Shown here one piece after another: positions 2,573-23,900 of a stretch of 35,817 bases of DNA. Position numbers and translations under genes: made by a program. The DNA lies in NCBI GenBank assembly GCA_965249275.1, contig CBDFLQ010000002.1:1-35817 (forward strand). Reading direction: 5' to 3'. The stretch comes from Dehalococcoidia bacterium. Lineage in GTDB: Bacteria > Chloroflexota > Dehalococcoidia > Plut-88900. The notes under the pieces were generated by a model, which saw only the letters and a list, made by a program, of their open reading frames with translations, was not told where the DNA came from and ran no database searches. The stretch's first letter is position 1. Each line of letters opens with the position of its first letter.

Positions 2573-2648
<76 letters not shown>

Positions 2649-4362: not shown

Positions 4363-5523
4363 TTACAAGACGCCCCGGCTGCGCAGGTCTTCGATCTTCT
4401 CGGGAGTCATGCTGGGCAAACGACCCAGGATTTCGCAGGTGTGCTCACCAGCCGCCGGAACCTTGCCTAAAGCGCCCTTGGTCTTGGAGAACTTAATGCT
4501 CAGGCCCGGGGCCATTATCTTTCCCTGGCCATCCTCAGTGGGCACCTCTACCATCATTTGACGCTCGGAGAGGTGGGGGTCTCGGGACATCTGGGCTGGA
4601 GTCTGCACAGGGCCGACGGGCACTTCGTTGGCGACGAGTTTCTCGGTTATATCGGCCACGTTATTCGAGGCGACCCATTCCGTGAGGAGTGCCAGGCGCT
4701 TGGCCTTCGAGCCTTCGTCGGCCTCGAAGCCAAGGATGCTGGGGTCTTCAGCAAGCTCGTGGCGACCCATAGCGATGAAGACTCGCGTCCAGAGGGTCCT
4801 GGAGGTAGCAGGGATGGTCACGTAGCCATCCTTGGCCTTATAGACGGAGGCGTAGTAGTCCTCGGGCCCTGCGCCTGTACCCATGTGGTGAGAGATGGGA
4901 ATTTCCATAAGGGTCACGCCCGTGTCCAGCAGGCTTACGTCGATCACCTGACCCTCGCCGGTAGCGTTGCGATGAATGACCGCCCCCAGGGTGCCAATGC
5001 AGGCATGGAGGGAAGTTATACGGTCGATGATCGGGGAGCCGGTAAGGACCGGGTGGCCTTCGTGGAGACCGGTTATCTCCATCAGCCCCGACATCGCCTG
5101 GCCGATGGGGTCGAAGGCAGGCCGGTTTCTGTAGGGACCATACTGCCCGAACCCCGACACTGAGGTCAGGATGATGTCGGGCTTGATCTTCTTGAGTTCC
5201 TCATAGGAGAAGCCCATCTTGGCGATGACGCCGGGCCTGAAGTTTTCGAGTACCACGTCGGCGGTCTTCACGAGCTCCCGGAAGATCTCCTTGCCCTCCT
5301 CGGTGCGCATGTTGAGGGTGATACTCTTCTTGCCTCGGTTGTAGACGGTGAAGTAGACGCTGGTGCCGTTAACCAGGGGAGCATGGGCTCGGGTCTCCTC
5401 ACCGCCGGGCTTTTCGACTTTGATGACCTCGGCGCCCATGTCGGACATAACCATGCCAGCCCGAGGCCCGGCTTGATACCGGGCGAGTTCCAGCACTTTT
5501 ATTCCGTCCAGACAGCCACTCAC
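4363..5523 (-). CDS. Family III (CaiB/BaiF) CoA-transferase
   Basis: LDGIKVLE, GAEVIKVE, NRGKKS, ENFRPG, GFGQYGPY; CAGGAGG RBS before GTG. Confidence 0.93.
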   Translation of the reverse strand: MSGCLDGIKVLELARYQAGPRAGMVMSDMGAEVIKVEKPGGEETRAHAPLVNGTSVYFTVYNRGKKSITLNMRTEEGKEIFRELVKTADVVLENFRPGVIAKMGFSYEELKKIKPDIILTSVSGFGQYGPYRNRPAFDPIGQAMSGLMEITGLHEGHPVLTGSPIIDRITSLHACIGTLGAVIHRNATGEGQVIDVSLLDTGVTLMEIPISHHMGTGAGPEDYYASVYKAKDGYVTIPATSRTLWTRVFIAMGRHELAEDPSILGFEADEGSKAKRLALLTEWVASNNVADITEKLVANEVPVGPVQTPAQMSRDPHLSERQMMVEVPTEDGQGKIMAPGLSIKFSKTKGALGKVPAAGEHTCEILGRLPSMTPEKIEDLRSRGVL

Positions 5524-5619
5524 CGCTCGGGCCTCCTGTAGTGAAATCTCACGAGACTGGGGTGCATCTTATCATATGGGGGTGGCTGGTCATCTGGCCG
5601 ATTCAATGTGCGATGTCAC

Positions 5620-6393
5620 CTACGAAAGGGATGCTAAGAAGTCCAGAAGTATCTTGTTGGTGGCCAGGGGTTGCTCTATGGACGGGTCGTGGCCGGCGTT
5701 TTTTATCCAGTGCACCTGTGAGCCAGATATGCCATCGTGGAGGGCCTGGGAGCCATCGACGTAAAGGTCTTCCTCGCCGCAGATCACGCAGGTCGGGACC
5801 TTTACATCACCGAGACGGGGCGCCTGGTTGAAAGCATTACACGCCTCCAGATCCCCGATCCCGACTGCCATTGGCGTCGATTTGTTGTTCCATTCATTGA
5901 GCTCAACAATGGCCCTCGGCGTGCTCTTCGAGAAGTTGCGCCCTGCGCTTTCTCTGACTGCCCGTTCGGGGTCGGTACGGTATATGTCAATGTAGTCTGA
6001 ATCGATGTTCCACTGGGGCGCCGAGCCGACGGGAATATAGGCCTCGACACCCGGGTAGTTCAGCGTAAAGTCCAACGCTATGGAGCCGCCCATAGAGTGG
6101 CCGGCTATCACGAAGCTCTCCAGCCCCAGGGCGTCTACAAAGGCCTTGACGAAGTCACGGTACTCCGAAACGTTCGTCGAACCCGATCCCTCGGAGTCTC
6201 CGTGGCCGGGAAGGTCCATCGCTATGGGCGTATGTCGGCGGGCAAGAGCCTGTAGCTGCGGCGCCCAAATCCGGTGATTGCTCCGCGCCCCGTGCACCAG
6301 TAGCACCGTCTTACCCCGGCGGTCACCGCCGGCCACATCATGAGGGGATGCGTAGAAGGCTCGTTTTCCATTTACCTGTATGTGTGTCATCAC
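5620..6393 (-). CDS. alpha/beta hydrolase
   Basis: LVHG, DLPGHG, GHSMGG nucleophile elbow, GEED and AGH triad residues. Confidence 0.92.
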   Translation of the reverse strand: MMTHIQVNGKRAFYASPHDVAGGDRRGKTVLLVHGARSNHRIWAPQLQALARRHTPIAMDLPGHGDSEGSGSTNVSEYRDFVKAFVDALGLESFVIAGHSMGGSIALDFTLNYPGVEAYIPVGSAPQWNIDSDYIDIYRTDPERAVRESAGRNFSKSTPRAIVELNEWNNKSTPMAVGIGDLEACNAFNQAPRLGDVKVPTCVICGEEDLYVDGSQALHDGISGSQVHWIKNAGHDPSIEQPLATNKILLDFLASLS

Positions 6394-6429
6394 TTCCCCC
6401 AGGACAGTTGGCTAATCTTCTATCGGTAG

Positions 6430-7203
6430 TCAGGACAGGGTGGCAAGATAGGCTCCAATGGCCTCGTTAAGCAAGGCGGGTTGCTCGATCATTACGGCGT
6501 GGCCCGCGGCAGGTATTATCTCGAAGGTCGTGTTCATAGCGCTGGCGTGGATCTGCCGCGAACCCTCTATCCACGTTTCCTCGTCGCCTGCGGCGACTAG
6601 GGCAGTGGCGCGAATCTCGCTAATTCGGCCTCCGAGATCGTATTTGTTGCAGTTCAAATAGTCCGCTATACAGGCCTCGGCGCTCTGACCCGCAAGCTGT
6701 TTGGCGTAGTCGTCCACTATCCGCTTGGGCGTCTTCTTCGAAACCAGGAGTCCGATGTTTGCGCTGTGGGCACTATCGGGGTCGGTCTTCCAGAGATCCA
6801 GGTCCCTTGCAGGCATCTCCCACTCGGGGCCCGCGCCAACAAGTATCAGCCCTTCGACATCTTCGGGATAGTGTATGGCGTAGTCTAACGCCATAGAACC
6901 ACCCATCGAGTGACCTGTGAAAACGAAGGGTGCCAGATCCATCACCTCTACGAAAGCCTTTATGAACTCTCGGAAGCGGGCCGGGTCGTCGATAGCCGGG
7001 CCTTGGGACTCGCCGTGGCCGGGCAGATCGATGGCCAGGGGAGTGTGATCCCTTTCGAGATAGGCATACTGGTGCATCCAGACACGGTGATTGTCAAAGG
7101 CACCGTGGACCATCAGGACGTTGTGTCCCTGGTGGACGCGGGCCTCGGCCTGTGCCGGAAATTGATAGTGGATGTTTCTGCCTTCGACCGTCGCGAAACC
7201 CAT
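6430..7203 (-). CDS. alpha/beta hydrolase (paralogue of the adjacent gene)
   Basis: MVHG, DLPGHG, GHSMGG, AGH; acid-residue region reads GDEE. Confidence 0.92.
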   Translation of the reverse strand: MGFATVEGRNIHYQFPAQAEARVHQGHNVLMVHGAFDNHRVWMHQYAYLERDHTPLAIDLPGHGESQGPAIDDPARFREFIKAFVEVMDLAPFVFTGHSMGGSMALDYAIHYPEDVEGLILVGAGPEWEMPARDLDLWKTDPDSAHSANIGLLVSKKTPKRIVDDYAKQLAGQSAEACIADYLNCNKYDLGGRISEIRATALVAAGDEETWIEGSRQIHASAMNTTFEIIPAAGHAVMIEQPALLNEAIGAYLATLS

Positions 7204-7240
7204 GGCTGTGCCTCGGCGTTGATGTGCTTAGGACAGGCTG

Positions 7241-7249
7241 ATTTTAGCA
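7241..7249 (-). promoter_or_regulatory. Extended -10 for the leftward hydrolase operon
   Basis: Minus strand TGCTAAAAT about 40 nt upstream of ATG 7203. Confidence 0.5.
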
Positions 7250-7319
7250 GACGGACGGGGTATACCTAAACCCTGTGTACTCGTTCGGTAGGTTAGTGAC
7301 ACACTGGCCTTTTCTTCAG

Positions 7320-7995
7320 TCCTCCAGAGGAGGATCTTCGATTGTGGGGTTTCGGTTTCCGTTCTGTCTGTTGGGTTTTGGGTTGGCGATGGAAGACGCT
7401 TGCTGGACGCTGCCCCTGTTCCTGTGCCTCGGGTGCTCCGACGCCCTGAGGCAAGGCCGCCGGCCCGCTTTTGCCGCTGCTGCGGCCTGTGGCCCTATAC
7501 ACGCTGGACACGGGCAGGGACCGTTAGGGCCACCAGGTCCGAGCCTGACTCCGTGGGGTTGGCTGCACCGCATAAGGGCGGCTAGGAGGCTCGCCCAGCG
7601 TCCGGGTGGAGCCTCTTGCAGGCGTAATATGTCCAAGTTTGCCGGTGCGACCCGGAGTGCAGGGACCACCGGCTCCCGGCTTGATTGAGCGGTCGGGGTA
7701 CCGAGAGTGCCTCGGCGCCGGGCCTATCCGACCGCTATTCCGCTTGAAGGAGCGGCTTCTCCGTTAGGAGCCTCACATGGAACGATAGCGAACCAGGGCG
7801 TCTTTCCATCGCCTGGGGGTCAGGGAAGGGTGCACGGGACCCGGTGGTGAGAGGAGATGGCGACTTTCGCTTGTGCCGCGGGCCTGCGCGGGGCCGTTGG
7901 GATGGGCTGAGGCGTTGAGTCCTCGGGTGGGTCGGGTGGGCTTCCCTAGTTTTTGATTCCTCCTTAAGGTGGTTGAGTGTGGTGGTCTAGACCTG
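7320..7995 (-). ncRNA. Candidate large structured non-coding RNA of unknown class (core 7385-7813)
   Basis: No credible ORF. A long terminal helix (7385-7426 with 7774-7813) encloses at least six hairpins. Near-consensus promoter at 8001-8030. Ends are approximate. Confidence 0.55.
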
Positions 7996-8000
7996 GCACC

Positions 8001-8030
8001 AATATAGAACATAAGTACTTGTAATGTCAA
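8001..8030 (-). promoter_or_regulatory. sigma70 promoter with a LexA-like (SOS) operator in its spacer
   Basis: Minus strand TTGACA-18 nt-TATATT. AGAACATAAGTACT at 8006-8019 is GAAC-N4-GTAC, one mismatch from GAAC-N4-GTTC. Confidence 0.65.
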
Positions 8031-8085
8031 GGGGCGAGATGTCACCCCTCTATGTGAACGGGATCACCCTGTCCACAATCGGCGA

Positions 8086-8094
8086 TGCTATAAT
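8086..8094 (+). promoter_or_regulatory. Extended -10 for the rightward CoA-transferase operon
   Basis: TGCTATAAT about 40 nt before TTG 8137. Confidence 0.6.
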
Positions 8095-8136
8095 CGCCCA
8101 CAATCCGGAAACCCCACCCTCACCTCGCGACCGACC

Positions 8137-9381
8137 TTGCTGGAACAGCAAACCCATAGTGCAGACTCCATTCTTCCATCCAAAGCCCTGGACGGCGTAA
8201 AAGTCCTGGACTTGGGCCACGGCATTCCTCCAGCACAAGCCACTAAACTGTTGGCTTGCTTCGGGGCGGATGTGATCAAGGTAGAGCCATTAGACGGGGA
8301 CCCGCTGCGGAGGTTGGGGCCATTCCCCAGTGACCTGCCCCACTCGGAGACCAGTGGGCTATTCCAGTATCTCAACGTCAACAAGAAGGGTGTGACGCTA
8401 AATCTCAAATCGGGGCACGGGCGTAAGCTCCTCATGGCCCTTCTGTCATGGGCCGATATTCTGGTAGAGGGGTTGGGGGCGGGGGTCATGGACGGCCTCG
8501 GACTCACATATGAGGCGATGGAGGCCGTCAATCCAGCGCTCGTCGTAGTGTCCATCACATCCTTCGGGCAGAACGGCCCGTACAAGGACTACAAGAGCTA
8601 CGAGATTCAGCCGTACGCCTTCGGCGGGCCGATGTACTTCACCGGCCAACCCGAACGGGAGCCGGTTAACTCCGCCAACAACGTGTCCGACCTACACACA
8701 GGGCTTGCAGCCGCAGCGGCGGGTATGGTCGCGTTTCGCAGGGCGGAGGCCTCGGGGGTGGGGGACTATATCGATATAGCGGCCTCGGAAGTGCAGATGG
8801 GTAACATAGACCGACGGGCTGCGAAGCTGCTGGCGTATTCGTATACAGGTGCGGTCGGGGCACGGAACCTGGACCATATGGGCATTGGGTCTGGGCCCTT
8901 CCCGTGCAAGGATGGATACGTGAACCTGCTTGGCGGGGAGTTCGGTTTCGACAGAGTCTGCTCACTCATAGAGCGGGAAGACCTGATGGATGAGCCCAGG
9001 TTCAACACGCCAGAAGGCAGGCGAGACCCGGCGAATATCGAAGAGATTACAGGCATTGTCATGTCCTGGCTCTATTCCAAGCCCAAGCTGGAAGCGTGGG
9101 ACATGGCACAGCACAAGCGGGTCCTTTCCGGGGTGGTGAACACTACGGAAGACTTGTTGGGGGACGACCATTTCTGGGAGAGGGGGATGTGGGCTTGCAC
9201 ACAACATCCCGTCGTCGGAGAGATGACAATGCCTGGAAGGCCGTTCAAGCTGTACCGAACTCCGTGGCGTCTCCATTCTCCAGCGCCGAGCCTCGGGCAG
9301 CACAACCGAGATGTCTACTGCGGGATGTTAGGCTACAGCCGGGAAGAGCTTGCCAAGCTCCGGCAATGGGGCGTCGTATAG
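8137..9381 (+). CDS. Family III CoA-transferase (possible subunit of a BbsE/F-like pair)
   Basis: LDGVKVLD, GADVIKVEP..GD, LNVNKKGVTL, FGQNGPY, APSLGQHN; start uncertain. Confidence 0.92.
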   Translation: MLEQQTHSADSILPSKALDGVKVLDLGHGIPPAQATKLLACFGADVIKVEPLDGDPLRRLGPFPSDLPHSETSGLFQYLNVNKKGVTLNLKSGHGRKLLMALLSWADILVEGLGAGVMDGLGLTYEAMEAVNPALVVVSITSFGQNGPYKDYKSYEIQPYAFGGPMYFTGQPEREPVNSANNVSDLHTGLAAAAAGMVAFRRAEASGVGDYIDIAASEVQMGNIDRRAAKLLAYSYTGAVGARNLDHMGIGSGPFPCKDGYVNLLGGEFGFDRVCSLIEREDLMDEPRFNTPEGRRDPANIEEITGIVMSWLYSKPKLEAWDMAQHKRVLSGVVNTTEDLLGDDHFWERGMWACTQHPVVGEMTMPGRPFKLYRTPWRLHSPAPSLGQHNRDVYCGMLGYSREELAKLRQWGVV

Positions 9382-9399
9382 AGGCAGTAGAGGGATAAA

Positions 9400-10701
9400 T
9401 TGGCGAAGCTACCCCTTGAGGGGATAAGGGTCCTGGAAATCACTGTCGTGTGGGCCGGTCCTCACTCCAGCCAGATATTGGCCGATTGGGGCGCGGACGT
9501 CATCCGCGTAGAGTCGACACAGTTTCTCGGCACGACGACGCGGACGGGCTTGATGAGACCCGAAAGAAACTATTTCAAAGTAATGATAGAGATGGGGTAC
9601 GGCTACGCGGGCCGGTACCCGGAGAGCCGGGCGTGGGACAGGGGCGCCCTTTTCAACACTCACGCCCGGAATAAGAGCAGCATGACGGTCGACGTGACGC
9701 GTCCGGAGGGGCTGGAAATCTTCAAAGATCTGATATCCAAGTCGGACGTGTTCATCGAAAACAATATGCCGGACACGATGAAGAAGCTGGGGTTGGTCTA
9801 CTCCGAGCTAAAGAAGCACAATCCCGGCCTGATAATGGTGAGGATGCCCGCCTTTGGGCTGGAAGGCAAATACCACAGGTACCGGTCCTGGGGTCAGCAC
9901 GTCGAAGGGGTAGCCGGCCATAGCTGGCTGAAGGGATACCGGGACACGGACATCTCCCAAAGACCTGAGTCCAACCAGAGTGATTCCGGGGCAGCCTACA
10001 GCGCCGTTCTTTCGGTACTGATGGCAATCAGGCATCGCAATCTAACGGGTGAAGGACAGCTCATCGAAATACCGCTGTGCGAGAACTTCATCCCCAGCCT
10101 GGCCGCTCCGATAATAGACTACACGATGAACGGCAGGGTGCGGTCGTCGTTGGGCAACGGGCATACGTCGATGGCGCCCCACGGTGTATACCGTTGCAAG
10201 GGCCCCGACTCATGGGTTGCGATTTCCGTAGGGAGCGACTCCGAGTGGGAAGGGCTGTGTAAGGCCCTGGGCAACCCGGAGTGGACCCGAGATAAAAGGT
10301 TCCGCACTGTGCTCGGGAGATGGAATAACCAGGAAGAGTTGGACCAAAGCCTAAACCAGTGGGCTCAAACCCTCACCCAGTACGAAGTGACGAGTCGGCT
10401 CCAGGGTGCCGGGGTGGCGGCTGCACCCGTCCTCGATGAAAAGGGCGTCCATACCGATCCTCACGTCAAGGCCCGCGGATTCTTCCAGTCCGTCAGTGAT
10501 CCCGATCTCGGTACTCACGATCATGTCGGGTTCATGTGGAAGATGGCCAGGACACCAAACGCCATTCGGAAGCCGCCCGCTCACCTGGGATACGGCAACG
10601 AGTACGTATACAAGGAGCTGCTGGGATACGACGCCGAGCGTTACGAACGGCTGGAGGAAGAGGGACACATAGGCACGGAGCCCGCTCCTCACATTCCGTG
10701 A
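9400..10701 (+). CDS. Family III CoA-transferase (second subunit)
   Basis: PLEGIRVLE..VWAGP, GADVIRVE, RNKSS, APHGVYRC..D.WVAI. Confidence 0.92.
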   Translation: MAKLPLEGIRVLEITVVWAGPHSSQILADWGADVIRVESTQFLGTTTRTGLMRPERNYFKVMIEMGYGYAGRYPESRAWDRGALFNTHARNKSSMTVDVTRPEGLEIFKDLISKSDVFIENNMPDTMKKLGLVYSELKKHNPGLIMVRMPAFGLEGKYHRYRSWGQHVEGVAGHSWLKGYRDTDISQRPESNQSDSGAAYSAVLSVLMAIRHRNLTGEGQLIEIPLCENFIPSLAAPIIDYTMNGRVRSSLGNGHTSMAPHGVYRCKGPDSWVAISVGSDSEWEGLCKALGNPEWTRDKRFRTVLGRWNNQEELDQSLNQWAQTLTQYEVTSRLQGAGVAAAPVLDEKGVHTDPHVKARGFFQSVSDPDLGTHDHVGFMWKMARTPNAIRKPPAHLGYGNEYVYKELLGYDAERYERLEEEGHIGTEPAPHIP

Positions 10702-23637: not shown

Positions 23638-23668
23638 AAAAAAAATCCCCACCCCTAAAGGGGCGGAG
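23638..23668 (-). terminator. T-box attenuator terminator
   Basis: Minus strand CTCCGCCCCT-TT-AGGGGTGGGG followed by A and a T-run. Confidence 0.85.
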
Positions 23669-23878
23669 AATCCGCGGTACCACCCTTCTTCATCTCCCGG
23701 CATGCCGGGAGATCTCAGGACCTGTAACGGTTGTCAACCGGCCAAAATTACTTGCCGACTTACGGCTTTCGGATTGGCAGCTCTGAGGCGAGTTCGGGAA
23801 CCTACGACCGCCGGGCTTTCACCTTACCCCGGCTCTCTAGAGGTTTTCGGTATTCCTACTACTCCTCTTCTCAGCCTT
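23638..23878 (-). promoter_or_regulatory. T-box riboswitch, Leu specifier (CUC)
   Basis: Minus strand: stem I with AGTA, AGAGAG and GGTGAAA elements; specifier GAA-CTC (23792-23790); T-box AAGGGTGGTACCGCG; then a terminator. Confidence 0.95.
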
Positions 23879-23900
23879 TCATTTTTTGATTAGTCAGTGA

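Follow-up and report, generated by a model that had tools for sequence, protein, structure and literature searches.

A predicted orphan RNA in a Dehalococcoidia genome is the interior of a protein-less DNA transposon found at promoter edges

What kind of genetic unit lies behind a solitary multi-helix fold in the genome of a Dehalococcoidia bacterium? The stretch analyzed here, the window, comprises 35,817 nucleotides (nt) (GenBank assembly GCA_965249275.1, contig CBDFLQ010000002.1, positions 1 to 35,817 of the forward strand). In the spacer between an alpha/beta hydrolase gene and a CoA-transferase family III gene (7204-8136), the original prediction, made from the letters alone, had placed an orphan structure of about 430 nt inside a putative non-coding transcript of about 0.7 kb (7320-7995) and had considered it a candidate for a new class of large RNA. 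We find that the flagged fold forms the interior of a single copy of a DNA transposon that is non-autonomous and protein-less. The element is multi-copy, has TG...CA termini, is bordered by 5-bp duplications and is missing at the corresponding site of relatives. Comparisons cover the window's own assembly (G000, 2.9 Mb, 87% complete) and the other eight genomes of the genus (G001-G008).

The whole element measures 791 bp and lies on the minus strand (7276-8066). Copy-to-copy similarity, end motifs, the target duplication and empty sites in two relatives define this extent, and the real unit is larger than the one first proposed. Read in the minus sense, it is 5'-TGATCCCG...CGAGTACA-3' with TG...CA termini, the end sequences being TGATCCCGTTC... 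and ...GAACGAGTACA. The element is flanked by a target-site duplication, CCCTG when read on the plus strand and CAGGG in the minus sense, with one copy next to its 3' end (7271-7275) and the other next to its 5' end (8067-8071); the duplication is 5 bp long, and the neighboring T belongs to the element itself. A 5' terminal inverted repeat, TGATCCCGTTCACATAGAGGGGTGAC (8041-8066, minus strand), faces a 3' terminal inverted repeat formed by the last 26 nt (7276-7301, minus strand). When the 5' end is compared by eye with the reverse complement of the 3' end, the repeats are imperfect and have the blocks CGTTC, TAG and GTGACA in common (TGATCCCGTTCACATAG..GTGACA at the 5' end versus TGTACTCGTTCGGTAG..GTGACA). 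A 22-nt motif from the 5' end, allowing up to five mismatches, occurs in 19 places in G000, nearly all of them at copies of the element; two of the 19 places (C6:525717 and C6:928805) were not compared with it.

The flanks of the copies carry the marks of transposition. We assembled a family set of 118 elements from seven genomes, 28 of which have both ends of this subfamily and represent 23 distinct flank pairs, some of them orthologous sites. The 5-bp flanks are identical in 17 of these 28 elements and match at four of five positions in six more, compared with 4% for shuffled partners. Moreover, the window locus itself is polymorphic within the genus. In G003 and G001 the flanks are 7 nt apart and contain a single target copy of the ACCCCG/ACCCCA type, which makes these sites precise empty sites, and G004, G006, G007 and G008 also lack the 0.8-kb insert. 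Two relatives, G005 and G002, do carry an element here, bordered by the same duplication and with other interiors, so that three of the nine genomes are occupied at the locus. One metagenome contig joins 7269 to 8066, a weak match whose shorter side has 35 letters at 85% likeness. The count of genomic copies and the search for empty sites, both suggested as checks at the outset, thus bear out what had been kept as a fallback, a non-autonomous mobile element.

At this site, each of the three occupied genomes has an interior of another type (clusters 4, 7 and 2). In its arms the window copy resembles non-orthologous copies more than its positional orthologues, which rank 7 and 20, and the flanks of the empty G003 are more similar to those of G000 (89/87% identity) than are the flanks of the occupied G002 (83/84%). 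On these grounds, repeated insertion into the same 5 bp is the simplest reading of the locus. Alternatively, an ancestral insertion may have been followed by interior swaps and one loss.

The fold is also not an orphan. A search with the spacer against G000 yields 63 BLAST matches in 56 places, and the coverage is modular: 24-31 copies for 7275-7407, 49-54 for 7793-8066 and 10 for the flagged middle. Using nhmmer, we recover 54 full 5' arms and 38 matches to the 3' arm in this genome. There are thus 54 copies of the frame, compared with 10 copies of the window's interior type. Strong matches are present in all eight other genomes of the genus. Outside it, among 41 genomes searched (G000 included), only weak matches were detected, in four genomes (E = 2e-4 to 8e-3). 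A scan with one genome per species returned at least 97 stretches, and all 80 loci listed are on six chromosomes named 'MAG: Dehalococcoidia bacterium'. The core motif has no match in viral contigs. What had been called an orphan large RNA is therefore represented by copies of one repeat family, and such calls in these genomes are to be read by annotators as members of it. Two G000 loci, C4:6596-7440 on a 9-kb contig and C7:585487-586268 on a large one, hold the same element with identical flanks; either a recent segmental duplication or a duplicate made in assembly could account for the C4 copy.

The members of the family have a common anatomy. Elements are 699-902 bp long, and in 117 of the 118 an inverted pair, GGCGATGGAAG ... 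CTTCCATCGCC, surrounds an interior 310-553 nt long. In nearly all paired copies the arms are 336-501 nt apart, the sole exception (693 nt) being a weak match from another element family. The interiors fall into 14 sequence clusters within one frame, and none of the 118 elements is a frame without an interior, in a search that covered gaps of 60 nt or more. The best-conserved part is the 5' arm. Its C-rich core (7814-7965, minus strand) has, in the consensus of 54 copies, at least 90% identity in most columns, and it includes a tandem of the 9-mer CCCACCCGA (7923-7940, minus strand). The core is followed by the 5' strand of a closing stalk (7798-7813, minus strand, core GGCGAUGGAAG), the variable interior of the window's type, which is the multi-hairpin domain (7400-7797, minus strand), and the 3' strand of the stalk (7385-7399, minus strand, core CUUCCAUCGCC). 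The 3' arm (7276-7384, minus strand) consists of a C/A-rich tail, a small CCUCC/GGAGG hairpin and the 3' terminal inverted repeat. The terminal helix of the original prediction, 7385-7399/7798-7813, is this stalk and is present, with a perfect 10-nt core (7385-7394/7804-7813). The flanks had been described as A/C-rich, which is borne out by the skew of the plus strand in the arms (GC skew +0.27 to +0.36, AT skew down to -0.68); in the interior it is about 0.

On the plus strand the tandem at 7923-7940 reads TCGGGTGGG twice and is kept in nearly all copies. It has the form G3-N-G3-N2-G3-N-G3, a textbook G-quadruplex motif, on the template strand of the element's promoter. A terminator-like hairpin with a T-run is also found on the plus strand (7290-7320), within the 3' terminal repeat, and is predicted to halt transcription that comes into the element from the gene side. 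Two other views of the interior were rejected. It is not an invertible, phase-variable segment, as the 117 interiors give no reverse-orientation match at E up to 1e-6. Nor is it a mosaic of palindromes resembling repetitive extragenic palindromes (REP-like) or of nested small MITEs (miniature transposable elements with inverted repeats), since seven hairpins gave 5-10 matches each and none outside the elements.

The element has a promoter of its own. As originally proposed, it is on the minus strand, where a sigma-70-type sequence, TTGACA-18-TATATT (8030-8001, 11 of 12 matches), fires inward. A TTGA(C/T) hexamer at -35 together with a scored -10 is found in 114 of the 118 copies, 113 of them with TTGAC, while identity in the upstream half of the promoter spacer is 0.36-0.5. 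Since the hexamers are conserved while the upstream half of the spacer drifts, the function of the promoter appears to be kept. No intrinsic terminator was found on the minus strand of the element. Open reading frames (ORFs) of 53-137 amino acids overlap the flagged region; none of the six internal ORFs tested contains a Pfam family over threshold, and they lack preceding start signals. A Shine-Dalgarno-like AAGGAGGAA at the start of the 5'-arm core (7957-7965, minus strand) is not followed by a start codon. The earlier view of these ORFs as spurious, in a non-coding stretch, is thereby upheld.

Where does the element insert? Its 3' end sits exactly 5 bp upstream of a resident -35-like hexamer. 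In the window, the promoter of the hydrolase gene follows directly after the target duplication, with a -35-like TTTAGG (7265-7270) and a -10 TAAAAT (7241-7246), both on the minus strand. G003 and G001, whose sites are empty, have this promoter sequence as well, which shows that the promoter is older than the insertion. Over 49 3' flanks, the match to TTGACA averages 4.12 of 6 positions at offset 5, compared with 0.7-1.6 at the 13 other offsets. Moreover, a -10-like hexamer is found 16-19 nt after the -35-like hexamer in 42 of the 49 flanks, compared with 0-3 of 49 at shifted offsets. Because the 3' end abuts the upstream edge of the -35 hexamer, both promoters, that of the element and the resident one, are directed into the next gene. 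The hydrolase gene (6430-7203, minus strand) is co-oriented with the element's promoter in this way and starts 72 nt past the element's end. In G000, a co-oriented ORF of at least 100 amino acids begins 34-163 nt beyond 21 of 24 true 3' ends, and a cruder count finds 39 of 54 downstream ORFs to be co-oriented. The downstream genes are diverse, 54 ORFs forming 43 similarity groups.

Is there nevertheless an RNA in the element? The minimum-free-energy fold of the minus strand reproduces both the inward continuation of the terminal helix (7403-7411/7787-7796 and 7412-7419/7775-7783) and the hairpins that had been listed (7425-7453, 7473-7486, 7489-7533, 7586-7615, 7641-7673, 7688-7736, 7740-7755 and 7759-7770). 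The region 7380-7820 has a folding z-score of -3.39 on the minus and -2.99 on the plus strand, and none of 100 shuffles folds as well on either strand. The folding check first suggested thus holds for this region; for the interior of the window copy by itself the score is weak. The long closing helix supplies much of the signal. Sense z-scores over ten interior types range from -0.9 to -6.4 (30 shuffles each), several of them being -4 to -6. Moreover, CCTAACGG occurs twice on the minus strand (7521 and 7761), as had been noted, and 27 of 100 shuffles of the window also give at least two matches. No Rfam family reaches its gathering threshold in 7150-8200, among them group I/II introns, RNase P, tmRNA and 6S; at E up to 10 there are chance-level matches only, the best with E = 0.23 and 16.6 bits against a 70-bit threshold. 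The absence of known RNA hallmarks that had been reported is in line with this.

Support for pairing comes from the stalk and from covariation. The stalk is 19-26 bp long (median 23). Beyond an invariant 11-nt core its sequence differs by interior type, and complementarity is kept: among type representatives, cognate extensions pair at -12.9 kcal/mol, compared with -9.6 kcal/mol for non-cognate ones (14 versus 182 pairs, Mann-Whitney p = 0.001). For the interior we projected the minimum-free-energy structure of the window copy onto an alignment of 37 distinct copies of its interior type from seven genomes, with a mean column identity of 75%. Under this structure 89.0% of the alignment cells pair. 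Changes on both sides are seen in 20 pairs, compared with 11.5 +/- 2.0 in shuffles (0 of 500 reach 20) and 6-17 in slid controls, and in 62 cells, compared with 28.4 +/- 4.3. The clearest compensatory cases are in local hairpins (U-A 20 / C-G 14 and U-A 22 / C-G 11), and length changes within the interior come as self-contained hairpins. The covariation check thus finds compensatory changes above the controls, and wobble pairs do not tell the strand. The evidence for an RNA in the element is modest.

No autonomous partner was found for the element in G000, which is 87% complete. Transposases of G000 comprise 22 rve-type matches in three groups of insertion sequences (IS; 12, 8 and 2 copies) and 17 DDE_Tnp_1 matches. 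The rve-type groups, to which the comparison of ends was confined, were rejected as the autonomous partner, since their ends and targets are different. The nearest IS has 12 copies, and its transposase has its best match in IS481 (NF033577, 187 bits, below the 224-bit cut-off). It has TGT...ACA ends and 5-bp duplications, and about 16 of 27 end positions are, by eye, common to it and the element. This IS is about 1.1 kb long, encodes a transposase of 320-329 amino acids and has the ends TGTAAGTGTTAGGTAATTCGTTGACAG...TACA (e.g., C7:521651, C6:65607 and C3:8058); its copies lie inside REP-like palindromes, with GGAAT/ATTCC as the 5-bp duplications. The two further rve-type groups (8 and 2 places; 401 and 381 amino acids; e.g., C5:21339 and C7:248501) have the ends TGTA..GACCGGGGACAT..GGTAACAG and have their insertions in a different REP-like unit (cccctctccc...gggagagggctagggtgagggtga); some copies of the element are flanked by this unit too.

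The promoter module is not confined to the element. In G000, 17 partial 5'-arm matches are promoter modules in front of a second ORF-less family, family B, and of a few genes. Family B has 13 copies with the same 5' end and the module GTGACA..CCCCTTGAC..TACTATATT, followed by another body of about 0.7 kb. They are at C7:724390, C7:453337, C6:128784, C6:57504, C6:946494, C6:841638, C6:141656, C6:222351, C5:272099, C5:735581, C5:156945, C5:169173 and C5:477200. The apparent ORFs of family B (216-409 amino acids) were rejected as transposases because they look like nonsense. At C5:231918 the module is followed by an array of CAATCA repeats.

The reading that we favor, with moderate confidence, is that of a transposon with an inward promoter and a stalk-closed exchangeable domain that lands at promoter edges, with the stalk as an RNA feature. 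The element consists, in order, of a terminal inverted repeat, an inward sigma-70 promoter, a conserved C-rich leader of about 150 nt and a stalk of about 23 bp, which encloses an exchangeable, hairpin-rich domain of 0.3-0.5 kb and is followed by a C/A-rich tail and the second terminal inverted repeat. It would be moved in trans by a DDE transposase (rve-type, IS481-like), for which the cue to the target would be TTGAC or a promoter occupied by RNA polymerase. Landing at promoter edges would provide a safe haven in which no gene is disrupted. From the element's promoter, a non-coding transcript of about 0.75 kb would run toward the resident promoter and gene, and into them, for lack of an intrinsic terminator. 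Transcription might be stopped by Rho in the C-rich tail; Rho was not found in the 87%-complete G000 and is present in all eight congeners.

The universal, covarying stalk would then be an RNA feature, most likely a double-strand site for processing or stability that separates the RNA of the element from the downstream mRNA or stabilizes it relative to that mRNA. The analogy is with the RNase III stalks of ribosomal RNA (rRNA) precursors or with Correia elements. rRNA precursors have RNase III stalks, and such a stalk needs a duplex of about 20 bp or more, a length that is reached in 113 of 117 elements. An RNase III gene is present in G000. The data can be explained without the interior RNA acting in trans.

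Several observations weigh against this reading. A TTGAC target motif together with purifying selection could mimic homing to promoters. An autonomous copy with the element's terminal repeats was not found in G000, the only genome searched and 87% complete, and the resident IS481-like IS is only loosely similar at its ends and inserts into GGAAT/ATTCC palindromes. Processing of the stalk by RNase III is purely inferred. The 397-nt interior that is left when 16 nt of closing helix are taken away on each side has a z-score of only -1.0 in the sense and -2.2 in the antisense direction (30 shuffles), and the two largest interior types have -1.8 and -0.9. The core of the stalk is invariant, which says nothing for or against pairing, and 7 of the 15 pairs of helix 1 never vary. 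Among pairs with a Watson-Crick majority, 46 have a minority of G-U and 33 one of A-C (p = 0.18), in keeping with the mixed wobble polarity reported at the outset; the plus-strand structure gives 51 versus 47. Because of this mixed polarity, pairing in the RNA of the promoter strand is not demonstrated. Finally, the 5' arm is nearly devoid of predicted structure (alifold -9.8 on either strand, few pairs, all of them invariant). An arm that is conserved yet unstructured points to a constraint at the level of sequence, on DNA or on protein binding.

The strongest competitor, which we regard as possible and clearly less probable than the favored reading, is a purely selfish transposon whose RNA has no function. 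The arms would be cis sequences for transposition, the interior swappable filler, the promoter a relic of the transposase promoter of a parent IS, and the stalk a pair of sub-terminal protein-binding sites or a DNA hairpin. This would suit the unstructured, best-conserved 5' arm, the invariant core of the stalk, the low z-score of the window's interior, the mixed wobble polarity with both strands folding about equally well, and interiors that are unrelated between copies, even at one orthologous site. It accounts less well for the conservation of the -35 and -10 hexamers beside a drifting upstream half of the spacer, and for a stalk extension that covaries with interior type and gives at least 19 bp in all 117 elements. 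Nor does it readily explain compensatory changes in the interior hairpins above both controls, length changes that are self-contained hairpins, or the strongly negative z-scores of several interior types.

Two readings that give the RNA a larger role seem to us unlikely. In one, the copies would be independent genes of one family for a large structured RNA that acts in trans, with the transposon only as its vehicle and with frame and exchangeable domain together providing different specificities. The strong promoter of its own, the conserved frame with an exchangeable stalk-closed domain, some covariation and the lack of any known RNA family that fits would be expected of such genes. The absence of a terminator would not, and neither would the position of 21 of 24 copies directly before a co-oriented promoter and gene, the weak z-score of the interior here or the strand that wobble pairs leave unsettled; moreover, 14 unrelated interiors are hard to square with one molecular function. 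Of the large RNA class first proposed, there remain the non-coding nature, the promoter, the lack of an Rfam match and, in some hairpins, compensatory changes above controls; the stretch is not primarily a free-standing RNA gene. The other reading, to which we give a similarly small chance, envisages mobile RNA genes that home to the -35 edge, in which a selected RNA domain would help to choose or rewire the promoter beside which it lands, for example by binding RNA polymerase, a sigma factor or the transposase, or would act in trans with specificities that differ between interiors.

A cis-regulatory leader or riboswitch of the hydrolase operon is highly improbable: although the element is upstream of the hydrolase gene and co-oriented with it, the gene keeps its own promoter in between, as do the genes behind 42 of 49 copies, six of eight congeners have that promoter and gene but no element, their empty sites refuting this reading, and copies precede many unrelated genes (43 similarity groups). 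The original prediction had likewise held that this need not be a leader, and the element is not specific to the hydrolase. A decayed protein-coding gene or mis-called ORFs can be dismissed with about the same assurance, given that the 53-137-amino-acid ORFs of the region have neither a Pfam family over threshold (0 of 6) nor start signals.

How does the element compare with known systems? Correia elements of Neisseria (CREE/NEMIS) are multi-copy, protein-less and intergenic and have terminal inverted repeats; they affect neighboring genes and can supply promoters, and the duplex of their transcript binds RNase III (PMC2649163). The element resembles them in being multi-copy, protein-less and intergenic with terminal inverted repeats. 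Correia elements are about 100-155 bp long, with a TA duplication and a duplex formed by the terminal repeats. The element, in contrast, has 0.7-0.9 kb, a 5-bp duplication and an inward promoter, its stalk is internal and surrounds an exchangeable 0.3-0.5-kb domain, and its insertion point is fixed relative to the -35. Non-autonomous IS derivatives are the subject of a general review (PMC10969869). With MITEs and mobile insertion cassettes the element has in common terminal inverted repeats, target duplications, the lack of a transposase, many copies and presence/absence polymorphism. MITEs are usually shorter than about 0.6 kb, and at 699-902 bp the element is closer to a mobile insertion cassette; it differs in its conserved promoter, conserved 150-nt leader and modular interior of 14 types. 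The IS481 family has TG...CA termini and a short target duplication as well, but the element has no transposase gene, and the resident IS481-like IS targets GGAAT/ATTCC palindromes and not promoters.

Reused or mobile promoters have been described as a concept in prokaryotes (PMC3575422). The element's promoter module is likewise found before many unrelated genes, but it lies inside a defined transposon, 0.75 kb away from a gene that keeps its own promoter. The landing site has its counterpart among eukaryotes. The retrotransposons Ty3, Ty1 and Tf1 insert at a fixed place upstream of transcription starts, a safe haven in a compact genome. The element too inserts at a fixed place upstream of transcription start regions, in another kingdom and by another mechanism. 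Like GOLLD, ROOL, OLE, HEARO and raiA, the structured part is large, multi-hairpin and non-coding, but it matches no covariance model and is not conserved in sequence between copies. A literature search for IS elements that target the -35 edge returned nothing relevant, which is no proof of absence from print. Relative to the literature found, three features are new: insertion in a fixed register with the -35 hexamer, a frame in which one stalk closes exchangeable interiors, and the promoter module common to a second ORF-less element family.

If promoter-edge targeting is a true property of the transposition machinery, it would be a bacterial counterpart of the safe-haven targeting of yeast retrotransposons and would offer a ready-made way of placing DNA at promoters. 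The copies are predicted to place another strong promoter, together with folded RNA of about 0.75 kb, before some 50 unrelated genes per genome in this uncultured Dehalococcoidia group, from which a genome-wide rewiring of expression could follow. Moreover, a conserved frame with a universal 23-bp stalk and freely exchangeable interiors is an unusual architecture.

The surroundings of the window copy are as follows. On the element's 5' side lies the divergent CoA-transferase family III gene (8137-9381, plus strand), with an extended -10-like TGCTATAAT recognized by eye (8086-8094, plus strand). Together with the hydrolase gene it is part of a cluster of paralogues (4363-10701) that contains three CoA-transferase family III genes (4363-5523, 8137-9381 and, identified by its ORF alone, 9400-10701) and a pair of alpha/beta hydrolase genes (5620-6393 and 6430-7203). 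The only Rfam matches in the window are a T-box leader (23656-23881, minus strand, 116.8 bits) and a tRNA gene (2576-2648, minus strand).

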